Source of the DNA: Flavobacteriales bacterium
Lineage (GTDB): Bacteria; Bacteroidota; Bacteroidia; Flavobacteriales_F; PHOS-HE28
Assembly: GCA_016710965.1 (NCBI GenBank)
Contig: JADJTW010000011.1
Location: forward strand, 27,040-91,039
Direction: 5' to 3'
DNA: 64,000 nucleotides
Shown here piece by piece: positions 1,184 to 64,000 of the stretch; positions within the stretch are counted from its first letter, which is position 1, and every line of letters starts with the position of its first letter. Both the position numbers and the translations under genes were made by a program. The notes under the pieces are model-generated. The model had not been told where the DNA came from and did not search any database. It saw only the letters and a list, made by a program, of their open reading frames with translations.

Positions 1184-1309
1184 GGTGGAAGGGCTTTGGT
1201 GTACGATGCGGCAACGCCGCCGATCGCATGATCGGTACCCGCGAGGCGTGATCGGGTTCAGGAACGGCGCTTCAAAGGCCGATCTTCGCACCCCCGCTCA
1301 CCAGAGCAC

Positions 1310-3795: not shown

Positions 3796-3861
3796 GCCGT
3801 TAGGGATCGCGCCGCACCGCAAGGCATCAACCTTCGGCGGCTTCCATGCGTACCACGGGCC

Positions 3862-4221
3862 ATGCCCCACGTATTACTGGTAGAAGATGACGCCCTGGTG
3901 CGCAAGCTGTTGGAGAAACGCCTGCTGGGCGCAGGATGGCGGGTAACCGCCTTGCGTGACGGCCGGTTGCTCCTGCCGCACCTCATCGGTCAGCGCTTCG
4001 ATCTGGTCCTCATCGACCTTGGCCTGCCGCATGCCGATGGCCTGAGCCTGATCGAGGAGATGCGCGCGAATGGTTTCGACACCCCGGTGCTTGTGCTTAC
4101 CGCTTACGACATGCCGCACCTGCATGCCACCGTGCGCGGCACCGGCGCCAACGACCTGGTGCAAAAGCCCTACGACCAGGAGGAACTGATCGAGCGCATG
4201 CAGCGCCTCATTGCGGCCTAG
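3862..4221 (+). CDS. Single-domain response regulator (CheY-like receiver)
   Basis: 119 aa. LLVEDD acidic pocket and LVLIDLGLPHADG phospho-acceptor region; no output domain. Confidence 0.7.
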   Translation: MPHVLLVEDDALVRKLLEKRLLGAGWRVTALRDGRLLLPHLIGQRFDLVLIDLGLPHADGLSLIEEMRANGFDTPVLVLTAYDMPHLHATVRGTGANDLVQKPYDQEELIERMQRLIAA

Positions 4222-4262
4222 TACTCGACGGGCCACCTCTTCCTTCCTTCTATTTTCGGGGC

Positions 4263-5594: not shown

Positions 5595-5609
5595 AGGCTG
5601 CGGCAGCGC

Positions 5610-5635
5610 CTTTCCGAGGCGGTTACCGAGGAAAG
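5610..5635. terminator. Possible bidirectional hairpin between convergent genes
   Basis: CTTTCC...GGAAAG stem with an inner CGGT/ACCG element. No clear U-tract. Confidence 0.2.
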
Positions 5636-5697
5636 AGCAGCTATTGCAACAGGAATTTAGGCGCGAGCAGCGCCGATCACCCTGTCTCGATCACGGA

Positions 5698-5960
5698 TCA
5701 CTCCACCACCATGTTCCCGCTGTACGTGCGCTTGCCGTTACTGAGGGTGACCATGTAGAAGCCGGGGCTCACGTCCCAAACATCCAGGCGTGGGCGTTCC
5801 TCATCCATGAGCAATTGCTGCTCGCTTACCATACGGCCGGTGCCATCGTAGATGCGCAATTGCAATTGCGCATCGTTTGCCAGCGCGCTGGGCACTTTGA
5901 GACGGAAGTTGCCGTTGTTGGGGTTGGCGTAGATCTCCAGGCTCGTATTCTCCAGCATGA
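5698..5960. repeat. Copy 1 of a near-identical direct repeat (3' end of paralog A)
   Basis: About 170 bp at roughly 95% identity with 7595-7770; beyond that the match decays to about 75%. Confidence 0.8.
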
Positions 5961-7387
5961 TGGATTGGGGCGTGCCAGTGAGCATGTCGTGCTTGGCCAG
6001 GAAGATGTCCATCCAGCCGTGGCTGTCGTAAGTCTCACTACCTATGGTGATGGAATATGGTACGGGTGTCACATCTGGAGGAAACGGACCGCTGACGAGG
6101 ACACTTCCATTGTCATAGGCAATACTGGAACCACTACCCATGCCTGCGTGTATCAGTTCCACTATATCCCCATCACTATCGCTGAGCGCGGAGAATGCGT
6201 CCAGGCCGGTATTCGCAGTATAGGTATTGCCTCCCAGTGCGATCTGGCCCTGCAAACTGCCGGTGAGCAACACCGCACCGGTCGGAGAGACATCGATGGC
6301 ATTGAAATCAAACGTATTCGTCCCTGAGTATTCACGGATGAACTCCATTGTGCCATCTGGACCGTATTTCGCCAGGAAGCCTCCGCCGTAGATGGTTGGC
6401 GCAATAAGTGTATCGATCTCGAAAGCAGCCGTATCGACATAAGTTCCGGCGGAATAGATGTTGCCACTTCCATCCAGGTCCATGCCGTATCGTCCAGCCC
6501 ATCCGTCGGGGAACCCATCGAGCTTCACCCATTCGGCTACGCCTGTCGCCGGATCGATGCTGGCGATGAGCTGGCCATGGCCCTGCCTGCCGAGGATCTG
6601 GATCGTATCGATCGCCGTCGTATCGTTCTCAGCGGTTATGAAAACATCTCCGTGGGCGAAGATCCGGTCGTTGAAGTAGCGCAGCACGTACGGCCGCACC
6701 CACTTGTTGATCCCATTGAACCCGGTGAAGGGCTTCACCCAGACCTCCTCGCCATCCGCATCGTATTTGCCCAGGAAGCAGCCGGTCTCCATGGGGGTGC
6801 CGCCCGCCACCGTGGTGCCGTTGTTATCCGTCGTCATGACCACCACCAGATCGCCGTTGCCATCTACCGTAATGGCCGTTGCGACCACGGCCGATGTCCC
6901 AGCGAAGCTCGTTGCGATGTTATGCGCCCAAAGGCAATGGCCATCAAGGTCCCATTTTGAGAGAAAAGCTGCGGACCATGGCGTGGACAACATGCATGTA
7001 TCCATCAACAAGAAAAAGTCGTAGTTGCCAATTACATAGAGATGCCCGGCATTGCTGTCCAATACCAGTGATTGGATGGCTGAGCGGTCGTAGCCCTCGA
7101 ATTGCCTCACCCATACCAGGTCGCCGTTCCCGGAGTACTTGGCCAGGAATTCGTCCCTGCTGCCCGGAAGCGTATCGCCTTCAGAAGTAGCAGCTATCGA
7201 AATCCGTTGGGCCGGCTGAACCAGCATACCAGCCGAACATGTAAACGGAATGTTCGGTATCCACGGCGCCGATATAGCCGCCATCCAAGCCCGGCCCTCC
7301 GATCTGCGTTGACCATTGCCAGGTTTGCGAGAAGCATGGTTGCAGTGAAAACACTCCCGTTAGGAGCAGTGCGGTCCTCATGGTCAT
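5698..7387 (-). CDS. SBBP beta-propeller-repeat surface protein with T9SS C-terminal sorting domain (paralog A); one frameshift near 7185
   Basis: N-terminal signal peptide in ORF 7181..7387 (MTMRTALLLTGVFSLQPCFSQ). Repeats such as FLAKYSGNGDLVWVRQF. C-terminal T9SS domain (NPNNGNFRLKVP...YMVTLSNGKRTYSGNMVVE). The N-terminal and main ORFs are in different frames and overlap at 7181-7284. Confidence 0.65.
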
Positions 7388-7500
7388 TGTCTCAGGAGTT
7401 TGCGGCTGTATCGCTGGCCAGTGGCATGCACGATCAGGGTGTACTCCGCCGGTGCGAATTCAGATAGGTCGAGGATGGTGCTCGTGGCGTTCATCGCGCG
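7384..7500 (-). pseudogene. Orphan remnant of a T9SS C-terminal domain
   Basis: ORF 7384..7581 ends ...STILDLSEFAPAEYTLIVHATGQRYSRKLLRQ. This resembles the last strands of a T9SS sorting domain, with no upstream gene body in frame. Confidence 0.3.
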
Positions 7501-7532
7501 TGAGATGAGCAATTCTCCGGTTTTAAACTCGC

Positions 7533-7561
7533 GCAGGGTCTCTCGTCTTCGAGGACCCTGC
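7533..7561 (-). terminator. Hairpin GCAGGGTC-N13-GACCCTGC downstream of paralog B
   Basis: Perfect 8-bp inverted repeat. It is followed on the minus strand by gcgagtttaaaacc, a weak U-rich stretch. Confidence 0.3.
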
Positions 7562-7594
7562 TCCCAACAGCGAAGGCGCAACCCATGCCCGAAG

Positions 7595-7860
7595 CTACTC
7601 CACCACCATGTTCCCGCTGTATATGCGCTTGCCGTTGCTCAACGTTACCATGTAGAAGCCGGGGCTCACGTCCCAAACATCCAGGCGTGGGCGTTCCTCA
7701 TCCATGAGCAACTGCTGCTCGCTTACCATACGGCCGGTGCCATCGTAGATGCGCAATTGCAATTGCGCTTCATTGGCCACGCGCTGGGTACCCTCAGGCG
7801 GAAACTGCCCTGATTGGGGTTGGCGTAGATCTCTAGGCCTGTGTTCTCCAACTGCATGGC
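7595..7860. repeat. Copy 2 of a near-identical direct repeat (3' end of paralog B)
   Basis: Direct comparison with 5698-5960. A stretch of about 110 bp has only one mismatch. Confidence 0.8.
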
Positions 7861-9276
7861 AGGGGGTACACCGGTGATCGATCCGTACTTGGCGAGTACG
7901 ATGTCCTCCCAACCATGGGTTGTGTAGCCTTCACTGCCGAATGTCGTGGTGCCCCAGGGGAAAAATTGTGAAAATCCACTACAGACTACTGCATTGTCCC
8001 CACTAACCTGCCGTTGCCCGGCCGTGCCCAGGGGGCTGGGCAAACGCCAGTGGATTGCCTAAAGAATCAAGCGAGGCAAGGAAGAGGTCACCATACTGAG
8101 ATGCGGAAAAGTGTTTCCGCCAAGTTCTATTTGCTCATTGAGTAAGCCTGTAACAAGCAGATTGCCGCTGGCTAGGACATCTATCCCTTGAAAGAAGAAT
8201 GAGCCGGTACCGTCGAACTCACGGACCCATGCTGGCGAACCATCAGATGTGTACTTGATCAACATACCATTCAAATCGTTATCTGGTGATTGAAGAGTAT
8301 CGTATGCCACGACGGCATTCTGATAGTAGCCACACGCTATATGGATGCTTCCGTCCTGGGCGACATCCATTTGAGCGGGATTTCCCCTTGCGCCCGGGTA
8401 TCCATCCAATCGAATCCACTCCGCAATCCCACTAGCGGTGTCGAGACTTGCTAGAATGAATCCATCCCCTATTCGGCCAATCACGCTTATCGTGTCCACG
8501 GTTGTGGTATCGCCCGATTGTTGGATATGGGCAAGTCCGTGCCCAACAATGCGAGCCCCATTCAGCCTCAGCGTACTAATGCCGACGCGCTTCTGATTTC
8601 CTTGATAGGAACAGAACGGCTTGGCCCAGATCAATTCACCGCTTGCAGACAACTTGACCAAGAAGGACCCATTGGGAATTGATTCGTTCTCCACCACTGT
8701 AGTTTCGTATTCATCGGTGGACAACGAAACAAAGATGCTCCCACCGGGCAGCTTGGCCATCGTAATGCCGTATACCCTGCTCGACTCGAAGGCTAGGCTT
8801 GTGGCAATGTTCCTCACCCACAGGCATCGCCCGTCCAAAGTCCACCTGGAAATCGCCACTGCAGCGGAGGGTGATGCAACCGAACAGGGTGTCCAAATAA
8901 CAGGCTGCGATATAGTTCGCGAGAACAATAGCGACGAGCCGGCACTGTCGAGAACAACAGCGCTGAGATTGACATTGCTGGTTGGACTGTTCAAGCTTCG
9001 AGCCCAAAGGAGGGCTCCGTTCGCATCGGTTTTTGCTATGAAACTGTCATCGCTGCCCAATAGCGTGTCTGTGCCGAAGTAGCAATCGGAGTAGGTCATG
9101 GATGTCCATGGTCTGGCATAGTCGCCGAACCAATAGATGGCACCTTGTGCATCGATCGCTCCAATGTGCGCATTGTCAATTCCAGGACCGCCTACATGCT
9201 GTGACCAAAGCCATTCTTGGGCGACTAGCCGAGCAACAAGAAAGAGGCATGGAAGAGTGAGGAATGCACGCATGGC
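7595..9276 (-). pseudogene. SBBP beta-propeller-repeat T9SS cargo protein (paralog B), split over three reading frames with an internal deletion
   Basis: ORF 8059..9354 (signal peptide MRAFLTLPCLFLVARLVAQ plus SBBP repeats), ORF 7723..8043 and ORF 7595..7912 are consecutive pieces in different frames. About 60 aa are missing relative to paralog A between GGNTF and SEGYTTHGW. Confidence 0.55.
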
Positions 9277-9287
9277 CTTAGTGTTTG

Positions 9288-11707
9288 ACAACGATTTTCG
9301 AATGCAGCAGATGCTCGTTGGAACTAACGCGGAGCGTGTACGTCCCCGCAGCAACGGTTCGAAGGTCCAACGCGAACTGCGGGCCCCCGAACGATTTGCT
9401 CAAGACCCGATTGCCGCGGCTATCGAGCAACTCGACACCGATCGACCCTGTTTCAACCCAGGCCCCTGCTTCTATTGGGATGTCGAAGTGATCGCCAGGT
9501 TGGTTTGATACGGATGCTCGGAGGACTCGCTGTTGTATGCACGCCGAGTTCGATCTCCTTGTCCTGTTCCACGAAGGACGTCGGGGGGCCTTGGACGAAG
9601 GACACCGATGTACTCCGCAAATTCACGCTCGCGATGTCCTCGCACGTGAAGACGACCGGTGCGGTATGCGCATGGACTTCGCAGCCTGTGAGGGCGCGGA
9701 ATTCCTGCCCCCAATGCACAGCGTAGCGGGCCTTCATATCGGAGCGGCCGCCCACAACTTCGTTCTCGAAGGACAGGCTTGCCAGTGCTTCGAAATTCTG
9801 CGTCTCGTTCGACCAGACAACAGCGTACTCCACAACCTGGTCCACCTGGCTGACCAGTGATTGCAGCGCGTGGGTGGCTCCTGGCAGAAAAGGATAGAAG
9901 GCATTGTCTTCTCCCACGTAGCCCTTCTTCATCCATGCCGTAGCATAAGCGCCGAATTTGATGTCCCAGATGATTTTGTCCAGCACCTCCCCGGGCACGT
10001 TAGGGTTCAATGGATTGCCTGGCGCCGGATCATACGCCCTTATCTCGAATTCTCCGTTGTCATCGGTGTAGCCCGAATGCGTGTACATTGTCGGACTCGG
10101 ATTCGGGAGAAAGGGGTTATCCACACCAACCCATCCGACGGCGTGAACCGCCGCGCCTGCAATCGGGTTTCCACCTTGATCAACCAGCCTTCCTGTAAGC
10201 GTTCCATAGTAGGCCTGGCCCCACACGTCAGTGTACACCGTTGAGTTCGATGGATGCCCGTACGGATTGTAGTACGCGTCGTTCATATCCACCGTGGGCG
10301 AGACCGGACCGTATTGCACGGATGGCGCTGGCGGGTTAGTCACCCACGAGACGAAGGTCTCCGCCGCCTGCTTGCGCAATGCCTCGTAGCCCGTGATACC
10401 GTTGACGAGGTCCATCGGTCCGGGATCGCCCGATTTGTGGATCCCATAGTACCGTTCGAGTAGTCCTGCGGTGAGTTCGGATCATTCGGTATCGGCGGCC
10501 ATGGCGGCGGATCGGCGTACCAGTGGATGTTCTGGAAGACCCACCACCCATAGCCGGCACAGCGCGAGCCAAGGACGAGCGGGAATGTGGCGCGCAGGAA
10601 ATCATCCTGGTCCTGCTCGCTTCCGAGCAGGTACGGATACGCATAGCTTGGATAGCCATTGGGATTGTCCTGTCCTTGGAAACCGGTCTCAGTGATGATG
10701 TACGGCTTGCGGATGAAACGGTCGTATTCGTACAGCATATCGGCGTAGCGCTTTGTGGCCTTGTCCAAGAAGGTGGAGGGGTCATCGTCATGCTCGAACC
10801 GATCGTGAAGCAGATAGAGATGCATGGTCGCAAAGTCGACCTCGAGCAGCAACGGATCCCAACCTTCGCGCCAGAGGTCGTCCATGAACACACCCCCGAT
10901 GGTGGTAAGATGGCCGGGATCCACCTGTTTCAGCCTCTGGTTCCAAGCGTGCGCTATCTCACAGATCTGCGCCCTTGTGTGTTTCGGCAGGACCTCTGGC
11001 CTTCCATCGGTAAAAGTCGGCTCACCGTAGAATTCGTACGCGAGCAGGTTCGTCACATCCTGTGCCTCAATGAAGGTGGCAATGGCCTCGATGTAGTCGA
11101 GGTGATCCTGGATCTCGGGCCAATCGGCGTTCAGGTCGAGCGCATGAACATCGCCGCCTATCTCGAACAAAACCTTCATGCCCACTGTATTCGCCAGACT
11201 GCATACTTGGAGCACCGTGTTCATTTGGAATTCGAACACCAGGTTCGCTTGCGGATCGTACGGCGGGTCCAGGTTGAGGAACAATTCGTCCTGTCCCGAT
11301 GGAAAGGCCTTGATCGACAGCAGATGCCCGTCGCCGGCCTTCTTCGTCACCCGGCTCAGGTATCGGATGGTATTGAATCCCATGGCTTTCATCTCGTGGA
11401 GGTCTTGCACGATGCTGGCCGGACCAGCCGCGATGCTGGGATAGGCGCACTGTCCGGTGGCGCCGAAGAAGGACGAGCGGCCGTAGCCGCAAGGTGCCAG
11501 CTCGGCAGCGCTGGGGTCGAGGGACGGTGGAGCATTGGAAGGATAGAAGAAATCGATGAAGTAGTTCATCACCATCGGGAAGAACGGTGCTCCGTTCTCA
11601 TCGATGAACTGATCTCCTTGAAGCCGGATATAGCCGGGTTGCGCCATCGCAGTGCCTACGGCAAGGCACACGAGGAAGACAAGTGCTCGTGCCATGGCGC
11701 TGCTCAC
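9288..11707 (-). CDS. GH5-family glycoside hydrolase with CarbopepD_reg-like module and T9SS C-terminal domain; at least two frameshifts
   Basis: ORF 10340..11707 has a signal peptide, GFNTIRY, YGEP and YIITETG (GH5 catalytic motifs). ORF 9453..10415, in a different frame, contains LTGRLVDQGGNPIAGAAVHAVG...YTDDNGEFEI. A T9SS C-terminal domain (PGDHFDIPIEAGAWVETGSIGVELLDSRGNRVL...GTYTLRVSSNEHLLHSKIVVKH) was found by manual translation of 9288..9485 in a third frame. Confidence 0.65.
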
Positions 11708-13307: not shown

Positions 13308-13325
13308 ATACCTGTTTCCAGGTAT
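13308..13325 (-). promoter_or_regulatory. Palindrome site 1: ATACCTG-TTTC-CAGGTAT (GAAA centre on the minus strand)
   Basis: Perfect 7-bp arms. Sits about 65-80 bp upstream of the minus-strand SprB-like gene start. Confidence 0.4.
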
Positions 13326-13369: not shown

Positions 13370-13387
13370 CTACCTGGAAACAGGTGG
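13370..13387 (+). promoter_or_regulatory. Palindrome site 2: CTACCTG-GAAA-CAGGTGG
   Basis: One mismatch in the arms. Sits about 80 bp upstream of the plus-strand FAD oxidoreductase gene. Confidence 0.4.
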
Positions 13388-38106: not shown

Positions 38107-38739
38107 TCAGGGTTGGGCGCTGACGAACAGCAGGCCCCACGGTACGAACATCACCAGCGCCACGCTGACCGAACCTACGAGGAAGCCGCTGTACACCTGT
38201 GCGGGAGTATGGTCGCTCACGAGCAGCCGTGAGGTGCCCAAGGCTCCGGATACCAGCACCGCTATCATAAGCGGGACGGCGAATGCCAGGCTGTGCGATT
38301 GCGCCACGGAGAATACGGCGCCCACCATTCCGCCCGCACCCACCATGTGCGCACTGATCTTCCAGCGCAGGGTGATGAGCGTTGTGACCAAGAGCGCGAA
38401 ACCGGCAGCGACCATGAGCGCGATGAGTTGTGGATGGAGCCGGGTCTTCGCGAGGAGGAACCAGGTCATGCCGTAGTACACCAGTGTCATGCAGTACGGT
38501 GCGATGCGCTCTCGACGGTCGGGCATGCGCAGACCGCTCACCATGCCTGAGCGTACCAGCAGCAGTACGCTGGTGATGGGGAAGGCCACGGTCATGAGCG
38601 CCACCATTGCCAGGAGCACCGTGCGCGAAGGGATCTCCATGTAGAAGTACGGGTCGGCCCAAAGCACGAAGGCCAGCGTGTACACCGGCATGAACAACGG
38701 ATGCAGGAGGATCGAAAGGAGCTGGGCGATGGCGAGCAT
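38107..38739 (-). CDS. PAP2-family membrane phosphatase
   Basis: Six TM helices; SAH and SRLLVSDH (SRxxxxxHxxxD) motifs. Confidence 0.6.
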   Translation of the reverse strand: MLAIAQLLSILLHPLFMPVYTLAFVLWADPYFYMEIPSRTVLLAMVALMTVAFPITSVLLLVRSGMVSGLRMPDRRERIAPYCMTLVYYGMTWFLLAKTRLHPQLIALMVAAGFALLVTTLITLRWKISAHMVGAGGMVGAVFSVAQSHSLAFAVPLMIAVLVSGALGTSRLLVSDHTPAQVYSGFLVGSVSVALVMFVPWGLLFVSAQP

Positions 38740-40208
38740 CAGAGTTCCTTGCGCAGTCGTGCGACGGGCAGGCTCAGTTGCTCGCGGTACTTGGCCACGG
38801 TGCGCCGCGCGATGTTGTAGCCCTTGCTCTTGAGCAGCGCGGTCAGTTCATCATCGGTCAGGGGCTTGTGCTTGTCCTCGGCCTCAATGGCGTCCTTCAG
38901 GATCTTCTTCACTTCCCGTGTGCTCACCTCCTCGCCGGCCTCGTTGGTAAGGCTTTCGCTGAAGAAGAACTTGAGCAGGATGGTGCCGTAGTTCGTCTGC
39001 ACGTACTTGCTGTTGGCCACCCGGCTGATGGTGCTGATGTCCAGGTGCACCTTCTCGGCGATGTCCTTCAGGATCATCGGCTTCAACTTGGTCTCGTCGC
39101 CGGTGAGGAAGAACTCGCGCTGGTGCTCCATGATGGCTTCCATGGTCACCAGCAGCGTATGCTGCCGTTGCTTGATGGCATCGATGAACCACTTGGCGCC
39201 GTCGAGCTTCTGCTTGATGAACATGATGGCCTCCTTGGCCGCCTTGTCCTTCTTGTTGCGCGCGTACTCCTGCATCATCTCGCGGTAGGCGCGGCTGATG
39301 CGCAGCTCGGGGGCATTGCGGCCGTTGAGCGTCAGCTCAAGCTGGCCGTCGATCGCCATCACGCTGAAATCGGGCACGATCTCCTGCACGGTCTTGTCCG
39401 TCTCGCGCATGGTGTTACCCGGCTTGGGGTTCAGGTGCGTGATCAGTTCGATCGCCCCTTTCAGTGCATCCTCGTCGATCTCCAAGCGTTCAAGGATCTT
39501 GTCATAGTGCTTCTTGGAGAAGGCCTCGAAGTGCTTGGCCACGATCTCTTGGGCCACCCGCTGATCGAGGCTGTGGGGCATGCGGTTGATCTGCAGCAGC
39601 AGGCACTCGCGCAGGTCGCGCGCTCCGGTGCCTGCGGGATCCAAGGCGTGTACCTCGCCCAAGGCTTCCTCCAGCTCCTCCTTGGTGGCTGATATGTTCT
39701 GGGTGAAGGCCAGGTCGTTCACGATGGCATCCAGGTCCCGACGCAGGTATCCGTCCTCATCGAGGTTGCCGATCAGGTGTTGGGCCAGGAGCTCGGTGCG
39801 TTCGGTGCAATCGCGCAGCGAGAGCTGGGCCGTGAGCGCATCCTGGAAGGAGGTGCCGCCCGCAAGGGGCACTTGACGTTCCTCATCGTCGGCGCTCCGG
39901 TTGTTCACGCTCAGCTTGTAGTCGGGCGTATCGTCATCGCCGAAGTAATCGCTCAGGTCCAGGTCGTCGCGCTCGTTCTCCTCATTGGCGTCGCTATCCA
40001 TCTCGCTGCTTTCCTCAATGGCCTGCTCCTCGGTGGGCGCCTCCTCCTCATTGCTGTCCTCGCCCTCCTCCAATGCAGGGTTGTCGGCGATCTCCTGCTT
40101 GATGCGCTCCTCCATGTCCAAGGTGGGCAGCTGCAGCATCTTCATCAGCTGGATCTGCTGCGGACTGAGCTTCTGGGAGAGCTTCTGGTAAAGGCCTTGT
40201 TTCAACAT
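38739..40208 (-). CDS. rpoN: RNA polymerase sigma-54 factor
   Basis: Acidic region plus C-terminal RpoN box ARRTVAKYRE. Confidence 0.9.
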   Translation of the reverse strand: MLKQGLYQKLSQKLSPQQIQLMKMLQLPTLDMEERIKQEIADNPALEEGEDSNEEEAPTEEQAIEESSEMDSDANEENERDDLDLSDYFGDDDTPDYKLSVNNRSADDEERQVPLAGGTSFQDALTAQLSLRDCTERTELLAQHLIGNLDEDGYLRRDLDAIVNDLAFTQNISATKEELEEALGEVHALDPAGTGARDLRECLLLQINRMPHSLDQRVAQEIVAKHFEAFSKKHYDKILERLEIDEDALKGAIELITHLNPKPGNTMRETDKTVQEIVPDFSVMAIDGQLELTLNGRNAPELRISRAYREMMQEYARNKKDKAAKEAIMFIKQKLDGAKWFIDAIKQRQHTLLVTMEAIMEHQREFFLTGDETKLKPMILKDIAEKVHLDISTISRVANSKYVQTNYGTILLKFFFSESLTNEAGEEVSTREVKKILKDAIEAEDKHKPLTDDELTALLKSKGYNIARRTVAKYREQLSLPVARLRKEL

Positions 40209-56485: not shown

Positions 56486-56860
56486 ATGAAGAAGATCATC
56501 CACCTCCTCCTTGCGCTCTCCTTCCTCGCCTTCGCCTACCTCAACCTCAACGATCCCGATGCGCCGATCTGGGTGCTCGGCTACGGCGCTGCCGCCCTGC
56601 TCTTCGCGCTCGCGGTCTTCGGCCGCGCCGATCGACGCATCAGCGGCTGGTATGCCGTGGCCATGGCCGTTTGGATGCTCACCCTATCGCGCGGCATGAT
56701 CGATTGGTTCAGGATGGGCATGCCTTCCATCACAGGCACCATGCAAGCCCACGAGCCGCACATCGAAGTGGTGCGCGAGTTCCTCGGTCTGCTCATTGCC
56801 GTGCTCGCTTTGGTGTGGCTCACCATCACCACCCCCCGCGAGTCGCGCATGGGCCGTTAG
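56486..56860 (+). CDS. Small 4-TM membrane protein, TMEM220-like
   Basis: 124 aa; LAFAYLNLNDPDAPIWVLGY start typical of the family. Confidence 0.45.
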   Translation: MKKIIHLLLALSFLAFAYLNLNDPDAPIWVLGYGAAALLFALAVFGRADRRISGWYAVAMAVWMLTLSRGMIDWFRMGMPSITGTMQAHEPHIEVVREFLGLLIAVLALVWLTITTPRESRMGR

Positions 56861-56880
56861 CCCGGTTCGCTGCGCATCGA

Positions 56881-56898
56881 CTACCTGGAAACAGGTAG
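56881..56898 (+). promoter_or_regulatory. Palindrome site 3: CTACCTG-GAAA-CAGGTAG
   Basis: Perfect 7-bp arms; 20 bp after the stop of the TMEM220-like gene. Confidence 0.4.
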
Positions 56899-57024
56899 AT
56901 GGACCGACGCGCGAACAACCGCCGCGCCGGTGACATACGGGCCCTGGCGCTTGCAAACCCGCTGCTGGCAAGGCAATCAGCGCATCCGGGGCGCTTGATC
57001 CACGCCTTTCGGATTTTCGTCGAA

Positions 57025-57042
57025 ATACCTGGAAACAGGTAT
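57025..57042 (+). promoter_or_regulatory. Palindrome site 4: ATACCTG-GAAA-CAGGTAT
   Basis: Perfect 7-bp arms; ends 12 bp before the ATG at 57055. Confidence 0.4.
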
Positions 57043-57054
57043 TGCGGAAGTGGT

Positions 57055-57741
57055 ATGGCCACGCGCTACTTCGTCGTGCAAAACATCTGGACCATGCCAA
57101 CACATCGCGTCATTGCCCAACGGGGTCTCCGCGTGAGACCCGCACCGAACACCAACAACACCCCGCTTGGTGCCCTGCCGCTCAACACCGAAGTGTACGT
57201 ACTGAGCGGTCCCACCAACGGCTGGTGCGAGGTGCGCGCCGCCTTGATCGATGGTGTACTGCAAGGCTGGGCCTCGGCCGAATACCTGGAGCCTATCGCC
57301 ACCGCCGCCCCCGAGCCCGAACCCGCATGGCTGACAACGGCGCGGGGAGAGATCGGCGTGCGGGAGTACCCCGGCGCAGATCACAATCCACGCATCCTGG
57401 AATACCATGATCACACGGGCCTGAATGCGAGCACCGATGAAGTGGCGTGGTGCTCTGCCTTCGCCAACTGGGTAATGGACCAGAACGGCATCGATGGCAC
57501 CAATAGCGCTGCTGCACGCAGCTGGGCCGGTTGGGGCCAGGCCATCGCCGAGCCGCGTCTTGGTTGCATCGTGGTCTTCAAGCGCTACGACCCCAACAAC
57601 CCCAACGCCGGGCACGTGGCGTTCTACAACACGCGTCGTGGCAATCGCATCGAAGTGCTCGGTGGCAACCAGGGCAATCAAGTGCGCCTCAATTCCTATC
57701 CCGCCGAAGACCTCATCGGCTACCGCTGGCCCAACATCTAG
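57055..57741 (+). CDS. SH3b plus NlpC/P60-CHAP-like (TIGR02594-type) putative cell-wall hydrolase
   Basis: N-terminal SH3b-like TEVYVLSGPTNGWCEVRAA; catalytic-type Cys (EVAWCSAFANW) and His (GHVAFY) spaced as in the TIGR02594 family. Confidence 0.5.
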   Translation: MATRYFVVQNIWTMPTHRVIAQRGLRVRPAPNTNNTPLGALPLNTEVYVLSGPTNGWCEVRAALIDGVLQGWASAEYLEPIATAAPEPEPAWLTTARGEIGVREYPGADHNPRILEYHDHTGLNASTDEVAWCSAFANWVMDQNGIDGTNSAAARSWAGWGQAIAEPRLGCIVVFKRYDPNNPNAGHVAFYNTRRGNRIEVLGGNQGNQVRLNSYPAEDLIGYRWPNI

Positions 57742-57745
57742 CACC

Positions 57746-58663
57746 ATGGCTGCACAAGCAAAGGATTACTTCACGCGCAAAGCGCTGCAAGGCTTCGGCA
57801 TGGCCTCATTGGCCGTAACGCTCATAGCCAACTTCATCAATGTCGTGTACGAGAAGGTGAGCGGCACCGGGCCCAGCGATGGAGTGATGGCCATCGTGGG
57901 CATCTCGCTCTCGGTAGCGGTTGTGGCCTTCTTCAGCGAGCGCGAAGAAGGGTTGAGCAAAGGCCAGCGCGCCTTCATCATGATGCTCAACGCCATCGTG
58001 CTCTTCAACGCCAATGCCGGCGTTAACGCGTTCCTCTATGACAAGCTCGGTCGCGAGGAGGGCGGCGCCAGCACGTCGGTCATCCTTCACCAAGGCCCTG
58101 CGCGCGCGAACTTCCTCGATGCGCTCAAGGGGATCATCGTTCCGCGCACGCCGTGGTTCAGCCAGGACCTGCCCGAGCTGAACGGATACCGCAACGAACT
58201 GGAGCGCACGAAGGAGGAAGTGGCCACGCTGGTGGTGCTCGACACCATCCATGCGCGCATCGATACGCTGGCGGAGGCCCAAGCGCGCAACCTGCGGACC
58301 ATCGCAGCGCGCGATAGCGAGCTGGTGGCCGTGCGCAAGGAGTACCAGCGCACCCTGGTCACCAGCCTTGAGCACGCCGCAACCTATGAGCAACGCCTTG
58401 CTGAATTGCAGCGCGCCGTGCGCGAGAACCCGGCCCTGGCCATGGAAGGGATCGCCGACCTGCGCAACGAGGTGGCCGCACGAAGCGATTCGGGCACCGC
58501 CGTGCAGCAGCAGATGCGCGTGCGGTTCGAAGAACAGAATGCGCTGCAGGTGCAACAGCAGCAACAGGCCATGGAGCAGGAGCAGCAGCAACAGCAATTG
58601 CAGCAACAGGTGCTGCTGCAACAGCAACAGTTGAACAAGGTCCGCCAACGCCTCTTCCGTTGA
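57746..58663 (+). CDS. Membrane protein with N-terminal TM helices and a C-terminal Q-rich coiled coil
   Basis: Three hydrophobic helices, then ...QVQQQQQAMEQEQQQQQLQQQVLLQQQQL. Confidence 0.45.
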   Translation: MAAQAKDYFTRKALQGFGMASLAVTLIANFINVVYEKVSGTGPSDGVMAIVGISLSVAVVAFFSEREEGLSKGQRAFIMMLNAIVLFNANAGVNAFLYDKLGREEGGASTSVILHQGPARANFLDALKGIIVPRTPWFSQDLPELNGYRNELERTKEEVATLVVLDTIHARIDTLAEAQARNLRTIAARDSELVAVRKEYQRTLVTSLEHAATYEQRLAELQRAVRENPALAMEGIADLRNEVAARSDSGTAVQQQMRVRFEEQNALQVQQQQQAMEQEQQQQQLQQQVLLQQQQLNKVRQRLFR

Positions 58664-58697
58664 TCGCGAGCACAGGCATGAACGAACACCCTGCCCC

Positions 58698-60014
58698 ATG
58701 AACCCTACGCAAGCCGCATTCGAGAATCCCTACCTGGACACCATCATTTCCCTTGTGCTGGTATACGCACTGCTCAGCATCCTGGTGAGCATCATCGTTG
58801 AGGGGTGGAACCGCCAGCTGAAAGCCCGTGGCGTCTTCCTGCAACGCATGGTCTTCAAGCTGCTGGATGATCCGGTGAACAAGAACTACGGCTATCGCAT
58901 CTACCAGCACCCAATCATCAGCAAGATGCGCAAGGACGGCAACGGGTACCCGCACTACATACCCGCCGAGGGTTTCGCCAATGCCCTGATCGATTCGCTG
59001 GCCGAGCAGGCGTATACCACCAGCTACAGGGCCTTCCTGGGCGACTCGGACGTGAACGACCGTTACAGCACCAATTCGCTCAGCGCTGCCGAGCGCGCGC
59101 AGCTGGTGTTCAAGAAGGTGGTGGCGCCGACCACGACCGGGAGCAGCGGCAAGGAGCTCGCCCCCGGCGATCGCCTTGTCGCCGGAGTGAGGGCCATGGC
59201 CGATAGCGAGCTCAAGAGCCTGCTGGCCAACTTCATCGAGCGCAACATGAAGTCCTTCAAAGCCGATGCGAACAGTCCCGAAGCGTTGCGGCTCGACATC
59301 GACAAGCTCAAGGGCGAGATCGGCCATTGGTTCGACGACTACATGGACCGCTGCAGCGGACAGTTCAAGGAGCAGCAGCGCCGGAAGCTGTGGATCGCGG
59401 GCTTCCTGGTGGCCATCACGCTCAACGTCGATTCGCTGCACTTGACCAAGGTGTTCCTGCTCGATAGCGACCTGCGCGAAAGCATGGTGGCCGAAGCAGA
59501 GCGCGTGGCCGATGGATACGAGGCCGAGAAGCAGCGCTTGGGCAGGGACACCCTCAGCACCGAAGAGCTGATGAGCGTTGCGCAGAACGCCATGGATTCG
59601 GCGCAGCGGAAAGCCGTCCTGGAGCAGCGCGAGAAGCAACTGGAGCAACTCACGCAGGTGGATAGCGTTTTCGACGCGCAGGCTGAACAGGTGCTGGCCC
59701 ATGTGCGCAGCTGGCAACTGCCCTTGGGCTGGAACCGCACCGAAGCGCCGTGGAGCTGGTTCCCCGCTTTAGGCGGCGAGCGGCTCAAGGAGATACCCAA
59801 GGAGTTCAAGCCATCGCAACGCGCGCTGCTTGATCATTTCCGCAAGCGCAACAAGGGGAGTTTCGGCAACTTCATCAAATGGATGGCAGGCATCCTCATC
59901 TCCAGCTGGTCGCTCAGCCTGGGCGCCCCCTTCTGGTTCGAGGCGCTCAGCAAGCTCATCAACATCCGTCGCAGCGGTCCCAAGCCCAAGACCTTGCAAG
60001 AACGAAACGCCTGA
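58698..60014 (+). CDS. Hypothetical membrane protein (TM helices at the N-terminus, centre and C-terminus, with coiled-coil stretches)
   Basis: 438 aa; no recognised domain. Confidence 0.45.
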   Translation: MNPTQAAFENPYLDTIISLVLVYALLSILVSIIVEGWNRQLKARGVFLQRMVFKLLDDPVNKNYGYRIYQHPIISKMRKDGNGYPHYIPAEGFANALIDSLAEQAYTTSYRAFLGDSDVNDRYSTNSLSAAERAQLVFKKVVAPTTTGSSGKELAPGDRLVAGVRAMADSELKSLLANFIERNMKSFKADANSPEALRLDIDKLKGEIGHWFDDYMDRCSGQFKEQQRRKLWIAGFLVAITLNVDSLHLTKVFLLDSDLRESMVAEAERVADGYEAEKQRLGRDTLSTEELMSVAQNAMDSAQRKAVLEQREKQLEQLTQVDSVFDAQAEQVLAHVRSWQLPLGWNRTEAPWSWFPALGGERLKEIPKEFKPSQRALLDHFRKRNKGSFGNFIKWMAGILISSWSLSLGAPFWFEALSKLINIRRSGPKPKTLQERNA

Positions 60015-60020
60015 GCCGCC

Positions 60021-61259
60021 ATGCCACGCATCACCAACATACACAGCCACATCTTCACCGGCCGTTGCGCGCCGGACTACTTCTTCCGCATGGCGCTCCC
60101 CTCATGGGCCGACCGATGGGCCGATGAGATCAAGGCTTTCCTGGAGAAGCGCTGGATGCGCCGGCTGATCAAGTTCTTCGCCAGTCGCCGTGGCAACAGC
60201 CAGCTGCTGCGCTATCTGCAATTCATCGAGGTGGGCACGCAAAGCACCCAGGAGGAGGTGTTCACGAGCATGCAGCGCGCCTATGCCGCCTTGGGCGCCG
60301 ACACGCGCTTCGTGGCCCTCACCCTCAACATGGACCACATGGACACGCAGCCCAGCGGCCATGCGCGCATCGATGACCAACTGGCCGAAGCGGAACGGGT
60401 GCGCAGTCATTTCCCCGATGCGTTATTCCCCTTCCTGGGAGTGGACCCGCGGCACAAGCAGGGCGCTGATCTGCTGGGGTGGGCACGGGAGAAGATCGAC
60501 CGCAGGGCCTTCTTCGGCATCAAGCTCTATCCCAGCATCGGGTTCTTCCCCTTCGATCCCGCGCTGGACCAGCTCTACGATTGGGCCGAGCAGGAACAGG
60601 TGCCGGTGATGACGCACTGCACGCGCAGCGGAACCTACTACACAGGCAGCATGTCCAACGTGCTGCCCAACATGCGCCCGCCCACATTGAACCCGGCCGC
60701 AGCGAAGCAAATGGACAGCATCTACAAGCGCATCGGCCGCTTCCGCGAGAGCGACTTCACGTGGAAGGACAGCAAGTACGGCTGCAACATCTTCCTGCAT
60801 CCGGAGAACTATGAGCCGGTGCTGCACAAGTACCCCGACCTGAAGCTCTGCTTCGCCCACTTCGGTGGCGACGATGAGATGCTGCCCGCCAAATTCAAAC
60901 AGCCGTTGCGCGAAAAGGGCATCGACGCCACCAATTGGCACGATGAGATCAAACGCATCATGGGCTTGCTCGACGATAGCGGGCGCCCGATGTACGAGAA
61001 CGTCTACGCGGACATCTCCTACACCCTTTCCAATAAGGATGTGTATCCCTTGTTGAACACGCTCATGCGCACCCCGCTCGCCGGACGGATCCTCTTCGGC
61101 ACGGACTTCTTCATGACCGTGCGCGAGAAGAGCGAGGCCGAACTGCTCCAGCAATGCACCACCAATCTGGAGAACGGCCACTTCCAACGCATGGCCGCCG
61201 CCAACACCACCGACTACCTGCGCTCGCGCATCTATGACCCAGAGGTGCCCTTCGCCTAG
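60021..61259 (+). CDS. Amidohydrolase-2-family metal-dependent hydrolase (TIM barrel)
   Basis: N-terminal NIHSHIF, MTHCTRSG, CFAHFGG and C-terminal ILFGTDFF motifs. Confidence 0.5.
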   Translation: MPRITNIHSHIFTGRCAPDYFFRMALPSWADRWADEIKAFLEKRWMRRLIKFFASRRGNSQLLRYLQFIEVGTQSTQEEVFTSMQRAYAALGADTRFVALTLNMDHMDTQPSGHARIDDQLAEAERVRSHFPDALFPFLGVDPRHKQGADLLGWAREKIDRRAFFGIKLYPSIGFFPFDPALDQLYDWAEQEQVPVMTHCTRSGTYYTGSMSNVLPNMRPPTLNPAAAKQMDSIYKRIGRFRESDFTWKDSKYGCNIFLHPENYEPVLHKYPDLKLCFAHFGGDDEMLPAKFKQPLREKGIDATNWHDEIKRIMGLLDDSGRPMYENVYADISYTLSNKDVYPLLNTLMRTPLAGRILFGTDFFMTVREKSEAELLQQCTTNLENGHFQRMAAANTTDYLRSRIYDPEVPFA

Positions 61260-61275
61260 CACGACCATCGCACGC

Positions 61276-61710
61276 ATGCCCACCACACTCACGCCAGCGC
61301 AAGTGCGCGACACCTTCAAGCAAGGTCTTGATGCCGCCAAGCTCGACCCCAAGGTGCAAGCCTTCTGGGGCGCCGATCCGCAGTACTACCTGCCCGATAG
61401 GAAGGAGATCGAGCTCTTCCTGCTCCACAACATCAACTTCCAGCCGGGCGGCTTGGGCACCGGTTTCGATTGCGATGATTTCGCCTACGCCGTGAAAGGC
61501 CTTATCGGCATCTGGAACCTCAACCGCGCAGGCATGCAGACCAGCTGGTGCGTGGGGGTCATCTTCGGAAGGTTCAGCTGGATGCCCGGCGAGCACGCCG
61601 CCAATTGGTACATCGACAAGAAGGGCATCATCCATCTCTTCGAACCGCAGGACCACAGCTTCCACACATTGCAGGAATGCCTTGGCGATGTGAAGCTGGT
61701 GCTGCTTTAA
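61276..61710 (+). CDS. Hypothetical protein
   Basis: 145 aa; no recognised domain. Confidence 0.35.
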   Translation: MPTTLTPAQVRDTFKQGLDAAKLDPKVQAFWGADPQYYLPDRKEIELFLLHNINFQPGGLGTGFDCDDFAYAVKGLIGIWNLNRAGMQTSWCVGVIFGRFSWMPGEHAANWYIDKKGIIHLFEPQDHSFHTLQECLGDVKLVLL

Positions 61711-61714
61711 CACC

Positions 61715-63865
61715 ATGACCATGCTTGAGAGGCTCCTTCTCTTCACTGTTTTCTATCTCCCGCTCATCACGCTCAGCGCTCAATCAGAGGCATACTACGC
61801 AGGGCGCTTGGTGGACGAGCGTGAGAACATGGCCGACCGCGTCATCGAATTCGAGTTCGATGGCGAAATGCTCACTGTGCCAACGGCCGATGTACTGGAC
61901 CACCTGGTTGCCGGCAATGACATAGAGACCCTGCCCGCGCTCGACGCCATGCGCGCCCGTGATGGCCATGACGTCGACTCCACGGAGCGGCTATCAGATG
62001 ACGCGCGCCGGTCGATCATGATCCAGTTGAAGCGAGCGGTCGATTCGGTACGCCTCTCAAGTGAGGGACAAGGATCAGCGCTGGAGGGGAATGCTGCTGA
62101 AGGAACCGAAAGCATGCTGCCCGGCAACAAAGAAGCCGCCATACTCGACGCCGTCGCACAGGTCATCGTGGACCGCGTGAAGGAAGAACTGGCGCTGGCC
62201 TACTTCGACAAGATGGCCGTGAAGATGGACGATGTGCATGTGCTCCACCATGCATGCCACGACCCGATGGCCCCGCAAGGGATGTGTACCCTCACCGAAT
62301 TGATGCCCGCCACCCAGCTCATCTTCAAGGAGAGCCGCGACCACATCTCTTCGCACGTTGGCGCCACGCTCAAGGCGGCATTCGTGGATGACCTGGAGAA
62401 GTTCACTTCGCACTTCTCCGAGGCCTACGGCACGGCATTGTCGAAGGCTGAAGCATCGACCTGCAAGGCGCTGCTGACCAATGAGGACTACGCTGTGCTC
62501 ATGGCGGCACGGCTGGTGAACGGGATCGCGCGGCGCCACGGGTGGATGGACATTCTGGAGGAACTTTCACGCACCGAAGTGGAAGCCATTGCATGGAAGA
62601 AGCGCGGCGCGGCCATCGACCTGGCGATCCGCCTGCTCGAGAGCATGCAGGATGCCGGCTCAGCCGATTTCATTGAGCTCCGGATCGGCGAATGGAGCGG
62701 GGATCGACTGAACGCGTACATGGGCTTGCTTCTGTTGAACCCGAACGTGAAGTCCGACCTGCACGCGCTCGGCATCGATCATGTTGTGCGTAACAAATAC
62801 GAGATGATCCGCGGCGTACTTCGCACAGCCGATGCATTGAGGAAGACGGCGGAAGAGCTGAAGGATTTCATCGACCCCAAGGTCAGCGAAGACAAGGGTT
62901 CGCATTTCGCGCGCTATGCTGGACTCGTGGTCGAGTTCATTTCCGATGGCAATGCAGCAGTCCGACAGCTGGCTACGGAGTGGGCTGCTGGCGCTGCGGA
63001 CCCCGACCGCCTGTTGCCGGCGAACTTCGATGCGTACGTTGAAGCTGCTATCGGCCTGCATGAGGCGGTCGTGAACAAGGACTATGGGAAGGCCAGCCTG
63101 CAAGTGCTGCGAACGCTGAACGCTGCCTTGCCAGCGGACAGCATCCTGGACCATGACCTGGTAAAGCTGGTCACGCTCGCCGCCGACATCGCCGAAGCGG
63201 GCAATGGGGAGGTGAAGGGGATCTTCGAGGCGGCGATCATGCCCGTGGGCAGCTTCCGGGTGAAGCAAAGCACCAGCTTCAGTGCCACGCTCAATGCGTA
63301 CCCCGGGATCTTCTTCGGAGCGGAAACCCTGCAAGGCAGCAATGGCACCAAGGGCTTTGGTGGCGTGGCCGGGCCCATCGGCGTGGCCCTGTCCTGGAGC
63401 AAGGGCAATGAACGGACCTTGCGCGCCAGCAACACCCTCATGCTGGGCATCATCGACATCGGCGCCTTGCTCACCTATCGTTTCGACACGGAGGACAGCG
63501 TGAGCGCCAACTCCCAAGTGGCATTCTCCACCGTGCTCGCCCCAGGCCTCTTCGCGCTTCACGGCTTCAAGGGCAGTCCGATCTCCTGCGGGTTCGGGGT
63601 GCAGTACGCCCCACGGCTGCGTGGTGTAGCCACGGACGCGATCGATCTGGCGCCTGCCGACGCGTTGCGTATTGGAGCCGCCATCGCAGTGGACATCCCC
63701 TTGTTCCCGCTGTCGCTCAGGCGCAGGCCGGTGAAGCCGTTGGCCGATGACGTGCGCGCCACAGAGGCCGAGCTGAAGGAGTTGAGCGGCCAAGGCGGGA
63801 ATACTGCATGCGTGGAGCGGCGGTTGAAGCGCAGGAAGGGTCGTCTCTATCGCGCGCTCCGCTGA
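61715..63865 (+). CDS. Large secreted hypothetical protein
   Basis: Signal peptide MTMLERLLLFTVFYLPLITLSAQS; 716 aa. Confidence 0.45.
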   Translation: MTMLERLLLFTVFYLPLITLSAQSEAYYAGRLVDERENMADRVIEFEFDGEMLTVPTADVLDHLVAGNDIETLPALDAMRARDGHDVDSTERLSDDARRSIMIQLKRAVDSVRLSSEGQGSALEGNAAEGTESMLPGNKEAAILDAVAQVIVDRVKEELALAYFDKMAVKMDDVHVLHHACHDPMAPQGMCTLTELMPATQLIFKESRDHISSHVGATLKAAFVDDLEKFTSHFSEAYGTALSKAEASTCKALLTNEDYAVLMAARLVNGIARRHGWMDILEELSRTEVEAIAWKKRGAAIDLAIRLLESMQDAGSADFIELRIGEWSGDRLNAYMGLLLLNPNVKSDLHALGIDHVVRNKYEMIRGVLRTADALRKTAEELKDFIDPKVSEDKGSHFARYAGLVVEFISDGNAAVRQLATEWAAGAADPDRLLPANFDAYVEAAIGLHEAVVNKDYGKASLQVLRTLNAALPADSILDHDLVKLVTLAADIAEAGNGEVKGIFEAAIMPVGSFRVKQSTSFSATLNAYPGIFFGAETLQGSNGTKGFGGVAGPIGVALSWSKGNERTLRASNTLMLGIIDIGALLTYRFDTEDSVSANSQVAFSTVLAPGLFALHGFKGSPISCGFGVQYAPRLRGVATDAIDLAPADALRIGAAIAVDIPLFPLSLRRRPVKPLADDVRATEAELKELSGQGGNTACVERRLKRRKGRLYRALR

Positions 63866-63870
63866 TCGGA

Positions 63871-64000
63871 TCACCCCTTCACCCCGCCTTTCAAGTAGTC
63901 ATCGTGGAAGTACTTCCGCAGGAAGGCCTCACCATTGCCGCTCAGGAATCCATCGAGCAACTGCTCCCTGGTCTGGCCGTACAGATGCGCATTGTATAGC
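63871..64000 (-). CDS. C-terminal end of an unidentified protein (5' end outside the window)
   Basis: Manual translation gives ...LYNAHLYGQTREQLLDGFLSGNGEAFLRKYFHDDYLKGGVKG, with a stop at 63871-63873. Confidence 0.3.
   Translation of the reverse strand, partial: LYNAHLYGQTREQLLDGFLSGNGEAFLRKYFHDDYLKGGVKG

Follow-up and report, generated by a model that had tools for sequence, protein, structure and literature searches.

A conserved Flavobacteriales operon that couples the gene of a MOA-type cysteine peptidase to that of a putative outer-membrane protein

We describe a conserved chromosomal operon in a 64,000-nucleotide stretch of DNA from a Flavobacteriales bacterium (assembly GCA_016710965.1, contig JADJTW010000011.1, positions 27,040 to 91,039), which we refer to as the window. 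Six closely spaced genes, g2 to g7, occupy positions 57055-63865 of its plus strand. At their core lies a pair of adjoining genes, g6, encoding a cysteine peptidase of the type known from the lectin MOA, and g7, encoding a predicted exported protein that is probably anchored in the outer membrane. Derivation from a phage lysis cassette, as had been loosely proposed in an earlier prediction made from the letters of this DNA alone (the original prediction), is not supported. The reading we favor, tentatively, is that the cluster is an envelope-spanning peptidase-partner module that is used in biological conflict or programmed envelope damage.

The operon and its core gene pair

The open reading frames (ORFs) of the operon and of g1, the gene preceding it, are all co-directional, and the gaps from g2 through g7 are 4, 34, 6, 16 and 4 bp; the ORF list bears out, on the plus strand, the coordinates and the spacing of 4-34 bp given by the original prediction. 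GC content at third codon positions (GC3) is 0.74-0.86 in the frames of g1 to g7, compared to 0.37-0.51 at second positions (GC2); for the six genes g2 to g7 it is 0.76-0.86. Because GC3 is far above GC2 in a sequence of approximately 62% GC, we consider g1 to g7 to be genuine coding frames.

The same genes occur in the same order in other Flavobacteriales assemblies, with 46-78% protein identity. In a different Flavobacteriales metagenome-assembled genome (MAG; locus L001/L015), g2 is followed by a non-homologous 202-aa gene for a transmembrane (TM) protein, then by g4, g5, g6, g7 and a convergent 581-aa gene. As far as its contig reaches, L007 has the end of g2 with g4 immediately behind it, and after these g5, g6, g7 and a convergent 583-aa gene. 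L005/L006 has only g2, g6 and g7 of the set, followed by small TM proteins, and L016, L017 and L051 have the g6-g7 pair. Based on the gene sets in these related contigs, the conserved unit comprises g2, g4, g5, g6, g7 and the convergent gene, g8. The gene clustering exceeds chance. The g6-g7 pair is the irreducible core of the unit, the g3 slot is variable, and g1 is outside it: a tblastn search found no g1 homologue beside the operon in L001, L005 or L007, which removes this gene from the operon in which it had been placed. The operon thereby combines two modules, g2 with g6 and g7, and g4 with g5, each of which is also found on its own. The original prediction of a tight cluster matching no described operon agrees with the conserved gene order and with the absence of any PADLOC defense system match, although its membership changes, as g1 is not part of the unit, g3 is replaced or absent elsewhere, and the convergent g8 is also conserved. 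Among 5.8 billion proteins, g7 has eight close homologues and g6 has six, and a metagenome scan yielded one new locus only, L051. Across related loci, g7 proteins are 39-56% identical.

Some of the related contigs have further genes at their edges. L007 adjoins DUF4062. The g6-g7 pair of L051 is preceded by a TM protein and by a secreted protein in which an HELFH motif can be seen by eye. On the 3' side of g2-g6-g7 in L005 (5904-13760) are a 309-aa protein with HNH-like Cys/His motifs (by eye, with no Pfam match), a 912-aa AAA ATPase and a very large DEAD/Helicase_C protein, a neighborhood that resembles a defense island.

The g6 gene (61276-61710, plus strand) encodes a free-standing papain-fold cysteine peptidase of the MOA/PSL type, with 144 aa and no signal peptide. 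It matches PF18021 (Agglutinin_C; 38.5 bits versus 26.8), which is classed as papain-like (PMC10318531), as well as PF18022, and it aligns with PSL (3phz, E 1.5e-6) and MOA (2iho). The alignment is confined to residues 63-129, the peptidase domain, and the 144 aa contain no N-terminal ricin-B lectin domain. C66, H107 and E123 of g6 align with C215, H257 and E274 of MOA, the experimentally defined catalytic machinery of that protein (PMC8244254). The motifs FDCDDFA, HA(A/Y)N and FEPQ are common to g6 and the MOA/PSL peptidase domain, indicating that g6 retains the Cys-His-Glu triad of this Ca/Mn-dependent papain-like fold. Unlike MOA, it is bacterial, a bare domain without the ricin-type lectin, and lies in an operon with an exported partner. 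A protein formerly listed as a 145-aa unknown is, by its PF18021 match, a MOA-type peptidase with an intact triad. In every close relative, g6 is directly upstream of g7, and all seven related contexts have the pair; in the window, 4 bp separate the two genes.

The g7 gene (61715-63865, plus strand) encodes a protein of 716 aa. Residues 1-22 are a signal peptide of the signal-peptidase-I type, with Gln at +1 and no lipobox Cys. Gln after the signal peptide fits the 'Q-rule' for signal peptidase I in Bacteroidetes. As judged from this signal g7 is exported, in agreement with the original prediction that it is secreted. An AF2 model (pLDDT 82) has a signal helix, a large helical domain, 8-9 beta strands at residues 522-669 and a C-terminal helical hairpin. 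On this model, g7 is divided into a novel alpha-helical domain (approximately 140-520), a putative OmpA-like eight-stranded beta-barrel (approximately 522-669) and, at residues 673-715, a basic helical hairpin. The best structural matches of residues 520-670 (approximate limits) in PDB libraries are to the class of the OmpA N-domain, OmpX, NspA, PagL and Ail, with weak scores and no sequence similarity. In the strands of the g7 family, variable hydrophobic positions alternate with conserved Ser, Gly, Asn, Gln, Asp and Arg, a pattern that would be expected if the family had a small membrane barrel whose lumen is polar. The predicted fold class and the alternating pattern are suggestive of small eight-stranded outer-membrane barrels; unlike in these, the putative barrel of g7 comes after some 500 aa of novel helical domain, and members of the g7 clade have the basic hairpin behind it. 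From the model we infer a probable outer-membrane anchoring of g7.

The g2 gene (57055-57741, plus strand; true start probably M14 at 57094, judging from an alignment of homologues) encodes a peptidoglycan-peptidase-like enzyme with SH3b and CHAP (TIGR02594) domains and without a signal peptide. It matches SH3_3 (32.5 bits), CHAP (34.8 bits versus 26) and TIGR02594 (124.5 bits versus a cut-off of 70.55). Its catalytic half matches phrog_1259, "baseplate hub subunit and tail lysozyme" (E 8.9e-35), and residues 97-226 are approximately 50% identical to baseplate-hub lysin domains of phages (589 phage records), including baseplate-hub/tail-lysozyme genes of Serratia, Salmonella and Klebsiella phages. 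C133, H187 and N205-Q206 are invariant in four homologues, as are the WCS and GHV motifs. The original prediction had named the catalytic Cys and His as the residues to check, and both are kept (C133 and H187); the intact residues suggest that g2 is catalytically competent. No sequence relatives of g2 were found in the PDB.

The second module consists of g4 (58698-60014, plus strand), a membrane protein of 438 aa, and its partner g5 (60021-61259, plus strand), a metal-dependent TIM-barrel hydrolase of the Amidohydro_2 family with 412 aa and no signal peptide. Neither g3, g4 nor g7 belongs to a family in Pfam, NCBIfam, PHROG or PADLOC, and as modeled, g4 and the helical domain of g7 are two high-confidence novel folds. 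g5 matches PF04909 (52.9 bits versus 26.4), has an HxH motif (NIHSHIF) near its N-terminus, shares 67-78% identity with its L001 and L007 counterparts, and has no sequence relatives that we found in the PDB. At least 162 homologues of g4 exist. Without g2, g6 and g7, the g4-g5 pair (58698-61259 in the window) is found in Fluviicola (L008, 8001-10529), Flavobacterium arsenatis (L009/L010; 8001-10253 in L009) and another Bacteroidota genome (L049, 6001-8530). In these genomes an Amidohydro_2 gene lies directly 3' of the g4 homologue, and those of Fluviicola and Flavobacterium are 35-38% identical to g5. In Rhizobium leguminosarum (L011, 6709-9086), a distant g4 homologue is divergent to a DUF2272 (CHAP-clan) gene near an imuB/dnaE2-like cassette, which hints that g4-type membrane proteins also pair with papain-fold hydrolases outside Bacteroidota.

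Downstream of g7, the window contains the 3' end of g8 (63869-64000, minus strand), a convergent gene of approximately 580 aa for an M19-like (membrane-dipeptidase-like) TIM-barrel hydrolase. The gene ends at 63869, 3 bp from the g7 stop, and runs off the window, which includes its last 42 codons. Translated on the reverse strand, this end reads ...LRKYFHDDYLKGGVKG* and corresponds to the C-terminus encoded by the convergent 581-583-aa genes beside g7 in L001 and L007; the L007 counterpart matches PF01244 (35.2 bits versus 26).

The variable gene, g3 (57746-58663, plus strand; GC3 0.81), encodes a protein of 305 aa with three predicted TM helices (near residues 18-34, 47-63 and 77-93) and a Q-rich coiled-coil C-terminus. 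Its position is taken by the non-homologous 202-aa gene in L001 and by no gene in L007. Comparison of g3 with the four-TM module of L005 described below, with the YLATT protein of L021, and with g4 gave no significant similarity.

Peptidases beside the wider g7 family

Although close homologues of g7 number only eight, its wider family is large. A phmmer search of 1.84 billion representatives with g7 returned 3,053 proteins at E<=1e-3, 2,020 of them at E<=1e-10, and most matches cover residues 440-670 of g7 (approximate limits). The C-terminal domain accounts for more than 2,000 unannotated clusters at 50% identity. Among 67 sampled members, the only Pfam domain was a single C-terminal DUF900; an EAD9 match in one member fell below the Pfam threshold (20.1 versus 25 bits) and was not used. 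An N-terminal hydrophobic core is present in 135 of 142 full-length representatives, and the next residue, Gln, is nearly invariant. Family members in cultured species, among them Flavobacterium pectinovorum, Lutibacter citreus, Flavivirga jejuensis, Chryseolinea sp. and Fibrella arboris, are labeled "hypothetical protein" in RefSeq.

To locate these genes we used a 12-member alignment of the g7-family C-terminal domain as the query against 185,579 species genomes, one per species. The scan gave 32 loci, which by title are from Bacteroidota except for three generic MAG titles and one MAG labeled Bifidobacteriaceae. Peptidase genes of different classes are found directly upstream: a MOA-like peptidase in L015-L017, and a trypsin-like or NAL1-like peptidase in 12 further loci. 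A single homologous trypsin-like family lies directly 5' of the g7-like gene in L012, L024, L026, L028, L030, L031, L033, L035, L041, L042 and L043. These trypsin-like partners have a C-terminal His...Asp...GDSG signature and, in most loci, an N-terminus with several TM segments. One has a weak match to Trypsin_2 and one is called a trypsin-like peptidase domain protein in UniRef. In L031 and L043 a 4-TM module is fused to the trypsin-like peptidase; L005 has this module as a gene of its own, just downstream of g7 (E 7e-22 and 1e-24).

In L024, L026, L028, L030, L031, L033, L035 and L041-L043, the trypsin-like partners are proteins of 237-589 aa, most of which bear the annotation "hypothetical". 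Their N-terminal multi-TM modules are of at least two different types, one of which is free-standing in L005 (3801-4340). When g4 was compared with the TM part of these partners, only a 32-column match was found, covering the last TM helix and an amphipathic motif (hhalign probability 44%, E 2e-4; HMM E approximately 1e-3), which is suggestive only.

L021, from an uncultured bacterium, has a different arrangement. A g2-like CHAP protein (E 7e-16, with the catalytic Cys and His kept) is followed by a NAL1-like trypsin peptidase (PF25819, E 1e-33) and a g7-like protein. From this gene order, the triad of CHAP protein, protease and g7 recurs with an unrelated protease class. In the same run (938-10315), two metallophosphoesterases and a YLATT 3-TM protein precede the triad and a patatin follows it; as a whole, the run resembles the multi-hydrolase clusters of conflict systems.

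Among 97 genes flanking 27 g7-family loci, patatin is the commonest Pfam family (five genes), and PADLOC matches in this set are to phospholipase effectors, mad genes, AriA, SoFic and ThsA. None of 153 g7-family representatives was fused to a trypsin-like, CHAP or MOA-like domain. The Saprospiraceae loci L019, L020, L022, L023, L029, L032 and L038 have a conserved secreted protein of approximately 620 aa, with no Pfam match, after the g7-like gene; upstream peptidases are lacking in these loci, and M28 peptidase genes recur nearby.

Competing readings of the operon

The favored reading, a peptidase-partner system, is based on the patchy distribution of the genes, the shuffling of components and the substitution of one protease class for another, which are typical of accessory conflict systems. 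This pattern also resembles that of protease-effector modules and of trypsin-co-occurring pairs. In protease-effector modules, latent effectors are encoded next to a protease, and one of them is a beta-barrel pore former that is activated by site-specific cleavage at its C-terminus (bioRxiv 10.1101/2025.11.14.688446). Trypsin-co-occurring (Trypco) partner genes have likewise been described (PMC7159879). The modules in these two reports combine a trypsin-, caspase- or subtilisin-like protease with Pepco/Trypco, EACC1, an MBL-fold protein or an alpha/beta hydrolase. As in these modules, the peptidase gene closely adjoins g7, a non-enzymatic partner, and protease classes are swapped beside the g7 family, sometimes with patatin, metallophosphoesterase or CHAP genes alongside. 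Like the Pepco effector, g7 is predicted to be a beta-barrel membrane protein with a charged C-terminal tail. Unlike in the known modules, the g7-type partner is a protein of 620-1,000 aa that appears to be Sec-exported and to have an OmpA-like monomeric barrel, and the peptidases bear TM anchors or nothing, with no STAND, CRISPR or other sensor domain.

In the mechanism that we propose, g6 would be made in the cytoplasm as a MOA-type cysteine peptidase that is tightly coupled to g7, while g7 would be exported by the Sec pathway, anchored in the outer membrane by its barrel and extend its novel helical domain into the periplasm. There, g7 could serve as a sensor or regulator of the peptidase, or as its latent target. 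g2 would belong with the g6-g7 module, whereas the inner-membrane protein g4 and the amidohydrolase g5 would form the second module, with the TIM-barrel enzyme g8 alongside. Once triggered, the cell-wall peptidase, the protease and the amidohydrolases might damage or remodel the envelope of the cell that produces them, by a logic analogous to that of protease-effector defense modules and of the conflict or programmed-death type. The physical interaction, the direction of signaling, the trigger and the roles in this scheme are those that we infer from the gene linkage and the predicted proteins.

Several findings weigh against this reading. No operon protein matches a PADLOC model, and in neither the window nor L001 do the ordinary genes on the flanks of the cluster make up a defense island. 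As a bare domain without a sensor, g6 differs from characterized protease-effector systems. While g7 has an export signal, g2, g5, g6 and g8 do not, so that a direct protease-substrate relation between g6 and g7 would need cleavage before export or an unproven export route. Approximately one-third of the evaluable g7-family loci have no peptidase gene directly upstream, and a crude topology estimate from hydropathy and the positive-inside rule was inconsistent on the side of the membrane at which the trypsin-like protease domains lie. Some g4 homologues have housekeeping surroundings; one of them, in an Acidimicrobiales MAG, stands alone between ftsK and the gene for RNase J.

An extension of the favored reading to the whole g7 family is more speculative, though it has a real, if modest, chance of being right. 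The g7 family and its adjacent peptidases would then be an undescribed class of trans-envelope systems that is widespread in Bacteroidota, in which a helical protein that spans the periplasm from an outer-membrane anchor surveys the envelope, for instance for phage or competitor attack, and controls tethered or soluble proteases and hydrolases (CHAP proteins, patatins, amidohydrolases and phosphoesterases) for cell death or remodeling.

The most serious rival, though an unlikely one, is that the operon serves housekeeping or conditional maintenance of the envelope through the processing of peptidoglycan or of other peptides of the D-amino-acid or gamma-glutamyl type. In this scenario, g2 would cut stem peptides, g5 and g8 would finish the small peptides in the cytoplasm, g3 and g4 would act in membrane uptake or as a scaffold, and g7 would be an outer-membrane tether or uptake component. 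CHAP/TIGR02594, Amidohydro_2 and Peptidase_M19 are all families with roles in peptide or amide hydrolysis, and the lack of signal peptides on every enzyme fits cytoplasmic catabolism, although SH3b-CHAP domains whose nearest relatives are phage tail lysins act on intact sacculi. A GGACT/ChaC-like gamma-glutamyl cyclotransferase gene is two genes away in L007, g4-g5 lies in ordinary chromosomal contexts in Fluviicola and L049, and transport genes flank the operon in the window. On the other hand, the operon includes no recognizable transporter, SusC/D or permease, eight close g7 homologues in 5.8 billion proteins are unusually few for a pathway of this kind, and the partners of the wider g7 family are membrane-tethered trypsin-like proteases and patatins, which are not catabolic enzymes.

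Interbacterial antagonism is less likely, and we regard it as improbable. Here, g2 would be a secreted peptidoglycan-amidase toxin, g3 its immunity protein, and g7, g4 and the remaining proteins would function in export or self-protection. TIGR02594 proteins have been reported as type VI secretion system (T6SS) effectors in Stenotrophomonas, several hydrolase genes are found together in the operon, and the position right after g2 has a hypervariable gene or none, as is often the case for immunity genes. However, L007 has g4 directly after g2 and no candidate immunity gene, g3 is a polytopic membrane protein and not a typical periplasmic immunity protein, and the conserved partners are g6 and g7, not g3. 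Neither on g2 nor on its neighbors was a T6SS, PAAR, VgrG or other delivery-signal domain found, or the C-terminal domain of the type IX secretion system (T9SS).

The weakest reading, and a highly improbable one, is a domesticated phage lysis cassette, as in the original prediction, or a type-10-like lysis/secretion unit, in which g2 would be the endolysin, g3 or g4 the holin or i-spanin and g7 a spanin-like outer-membrane part: although a leaderless muralytic-type enzyme related to phage lysins is encoded in one transcription unit with membrane proteins that have long helical regions (g3 and g4) and with a probable outer-membrane protein, so that inner-membrane, wall and outer-membrane parts are present together, neither g4 nor g7 has a homologue in 50,697 phage genomes (tblastn) or in IMG/VR, the PHROG matches for g3-g7 amount to one at E 0.077, the phage relatives of g2 are virion lysins of the baseplate and tail and not cassette endolysins, no conserved small holin lies by g2, g3 (the proposed i-spanin analogue) is the sole non-conserved gene of the operon, g7 is not a lipoprotein as an o-spanin would be and at 716 aa far exceeds any spanin, and two amidohydrolases and a cysteine peptidase are left unexplained. 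The 64-kb window has one tRNA gene, approximately 28 kb away, and no integrase search was made. The original prediction did not foresee the papain-fold peptidase g6, the joining of two modules or the very large protease-linked family of g7. Its broader parts, that the cluster is related to the cell envelope and that it could be something new, are compatible with the evidence.

Surroundings of the operon and its significance

The gene before the operon, g1 (56486-56860, plus strand), encodes a 4-TM protein of 124 aa that matches PF15071 (E 4.6e-21) and is a bacterial homologue of the eukaryote-named TMEM220 family. This profile match, together with those of g2 and g5, confirms the earlier domain labels TMEM220, TIGR02594-type and amidohydrolase-2. 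The g1 gene directly follows a TonB-dependent receptor gene and is unlinked to the operon in other genomes. More widely, ordinary genes flank the operon in the window (RND efflux pump, TonB-dependent receptor and T9SS cargo, as well as transport genes).

Two palindromes that had been noted before the operon are present as exact matches. Site 1 (56882-56897, plus strand; TACCTG-GAAA-CAGGTA) is 22 nt past the g1 stop, and site 2 (57026-57041, plus strand) is approximately 52 nt before the likely g2 start at 57094. The sequence TACCTGGAAACAGGTA is found four times in the window, compared to 0.13 expected; the other copies are at 13309-13324 (minus strand) and 13371-13386 (plus strand), and every copy is in the sense orientation relative to its downstream gene. 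In an RNA fold, site 1 forms a 7-bp stem with a GAAA loop, and the stem of the 16-mer is of 6-7 bp. A longer form, AAATACCTGGAAACAGGTATTGCG, is common to the site at 57026 and the minus-strand site at 13309. A partly similar sequence precedes g2 in L001, although the exact motif was not found in any related locus that we fetched, and no Rfam family matches the elements. From its sequence and placement, TACCTGGAAACAGGTA looks like a strand-specific regulatory element or 5'-leader hairpin that the operon has in common with a divergent pair of genes at 13.3 kb. A sigma-54 promoter was considered for the palindromes and rejected by eye, since the TGG-to-TTGC spacing is one base too long. A 489-aa ORF elsewhere in the window (38739-40208, minus strand), with the N-terminus MLKQGLYQKLSQKLSPQQIQLMKMLQLP..., resembles sigma-54 (RpoN) by eye.

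The enzyme domains of the operon are known; the operon itself, the folds of g4 and of the g7 helical domain, and the g7 family with its unannotated size and its systematic adjacency to peptidases are not described in the searchable libraries or literature. The g4-g5 pair is a recurrent two-gene module of a membrane protein and an amidohydrolase in its own right, without a known function. If the linkage between the g7 family and peptidases is functional, thousands of exported Bacteroidota proteins now called "hypothetical" would gain a first functional handle, namely partnership with a peptidase. The MOA-type cysteine peptidase fold, known until now from studies of mushroom lectins only, would also acquire a role in bacteria, and the logic of a protease and its latent partner, as in cytoplasmic defense effectors, would extend to the cell envelope.

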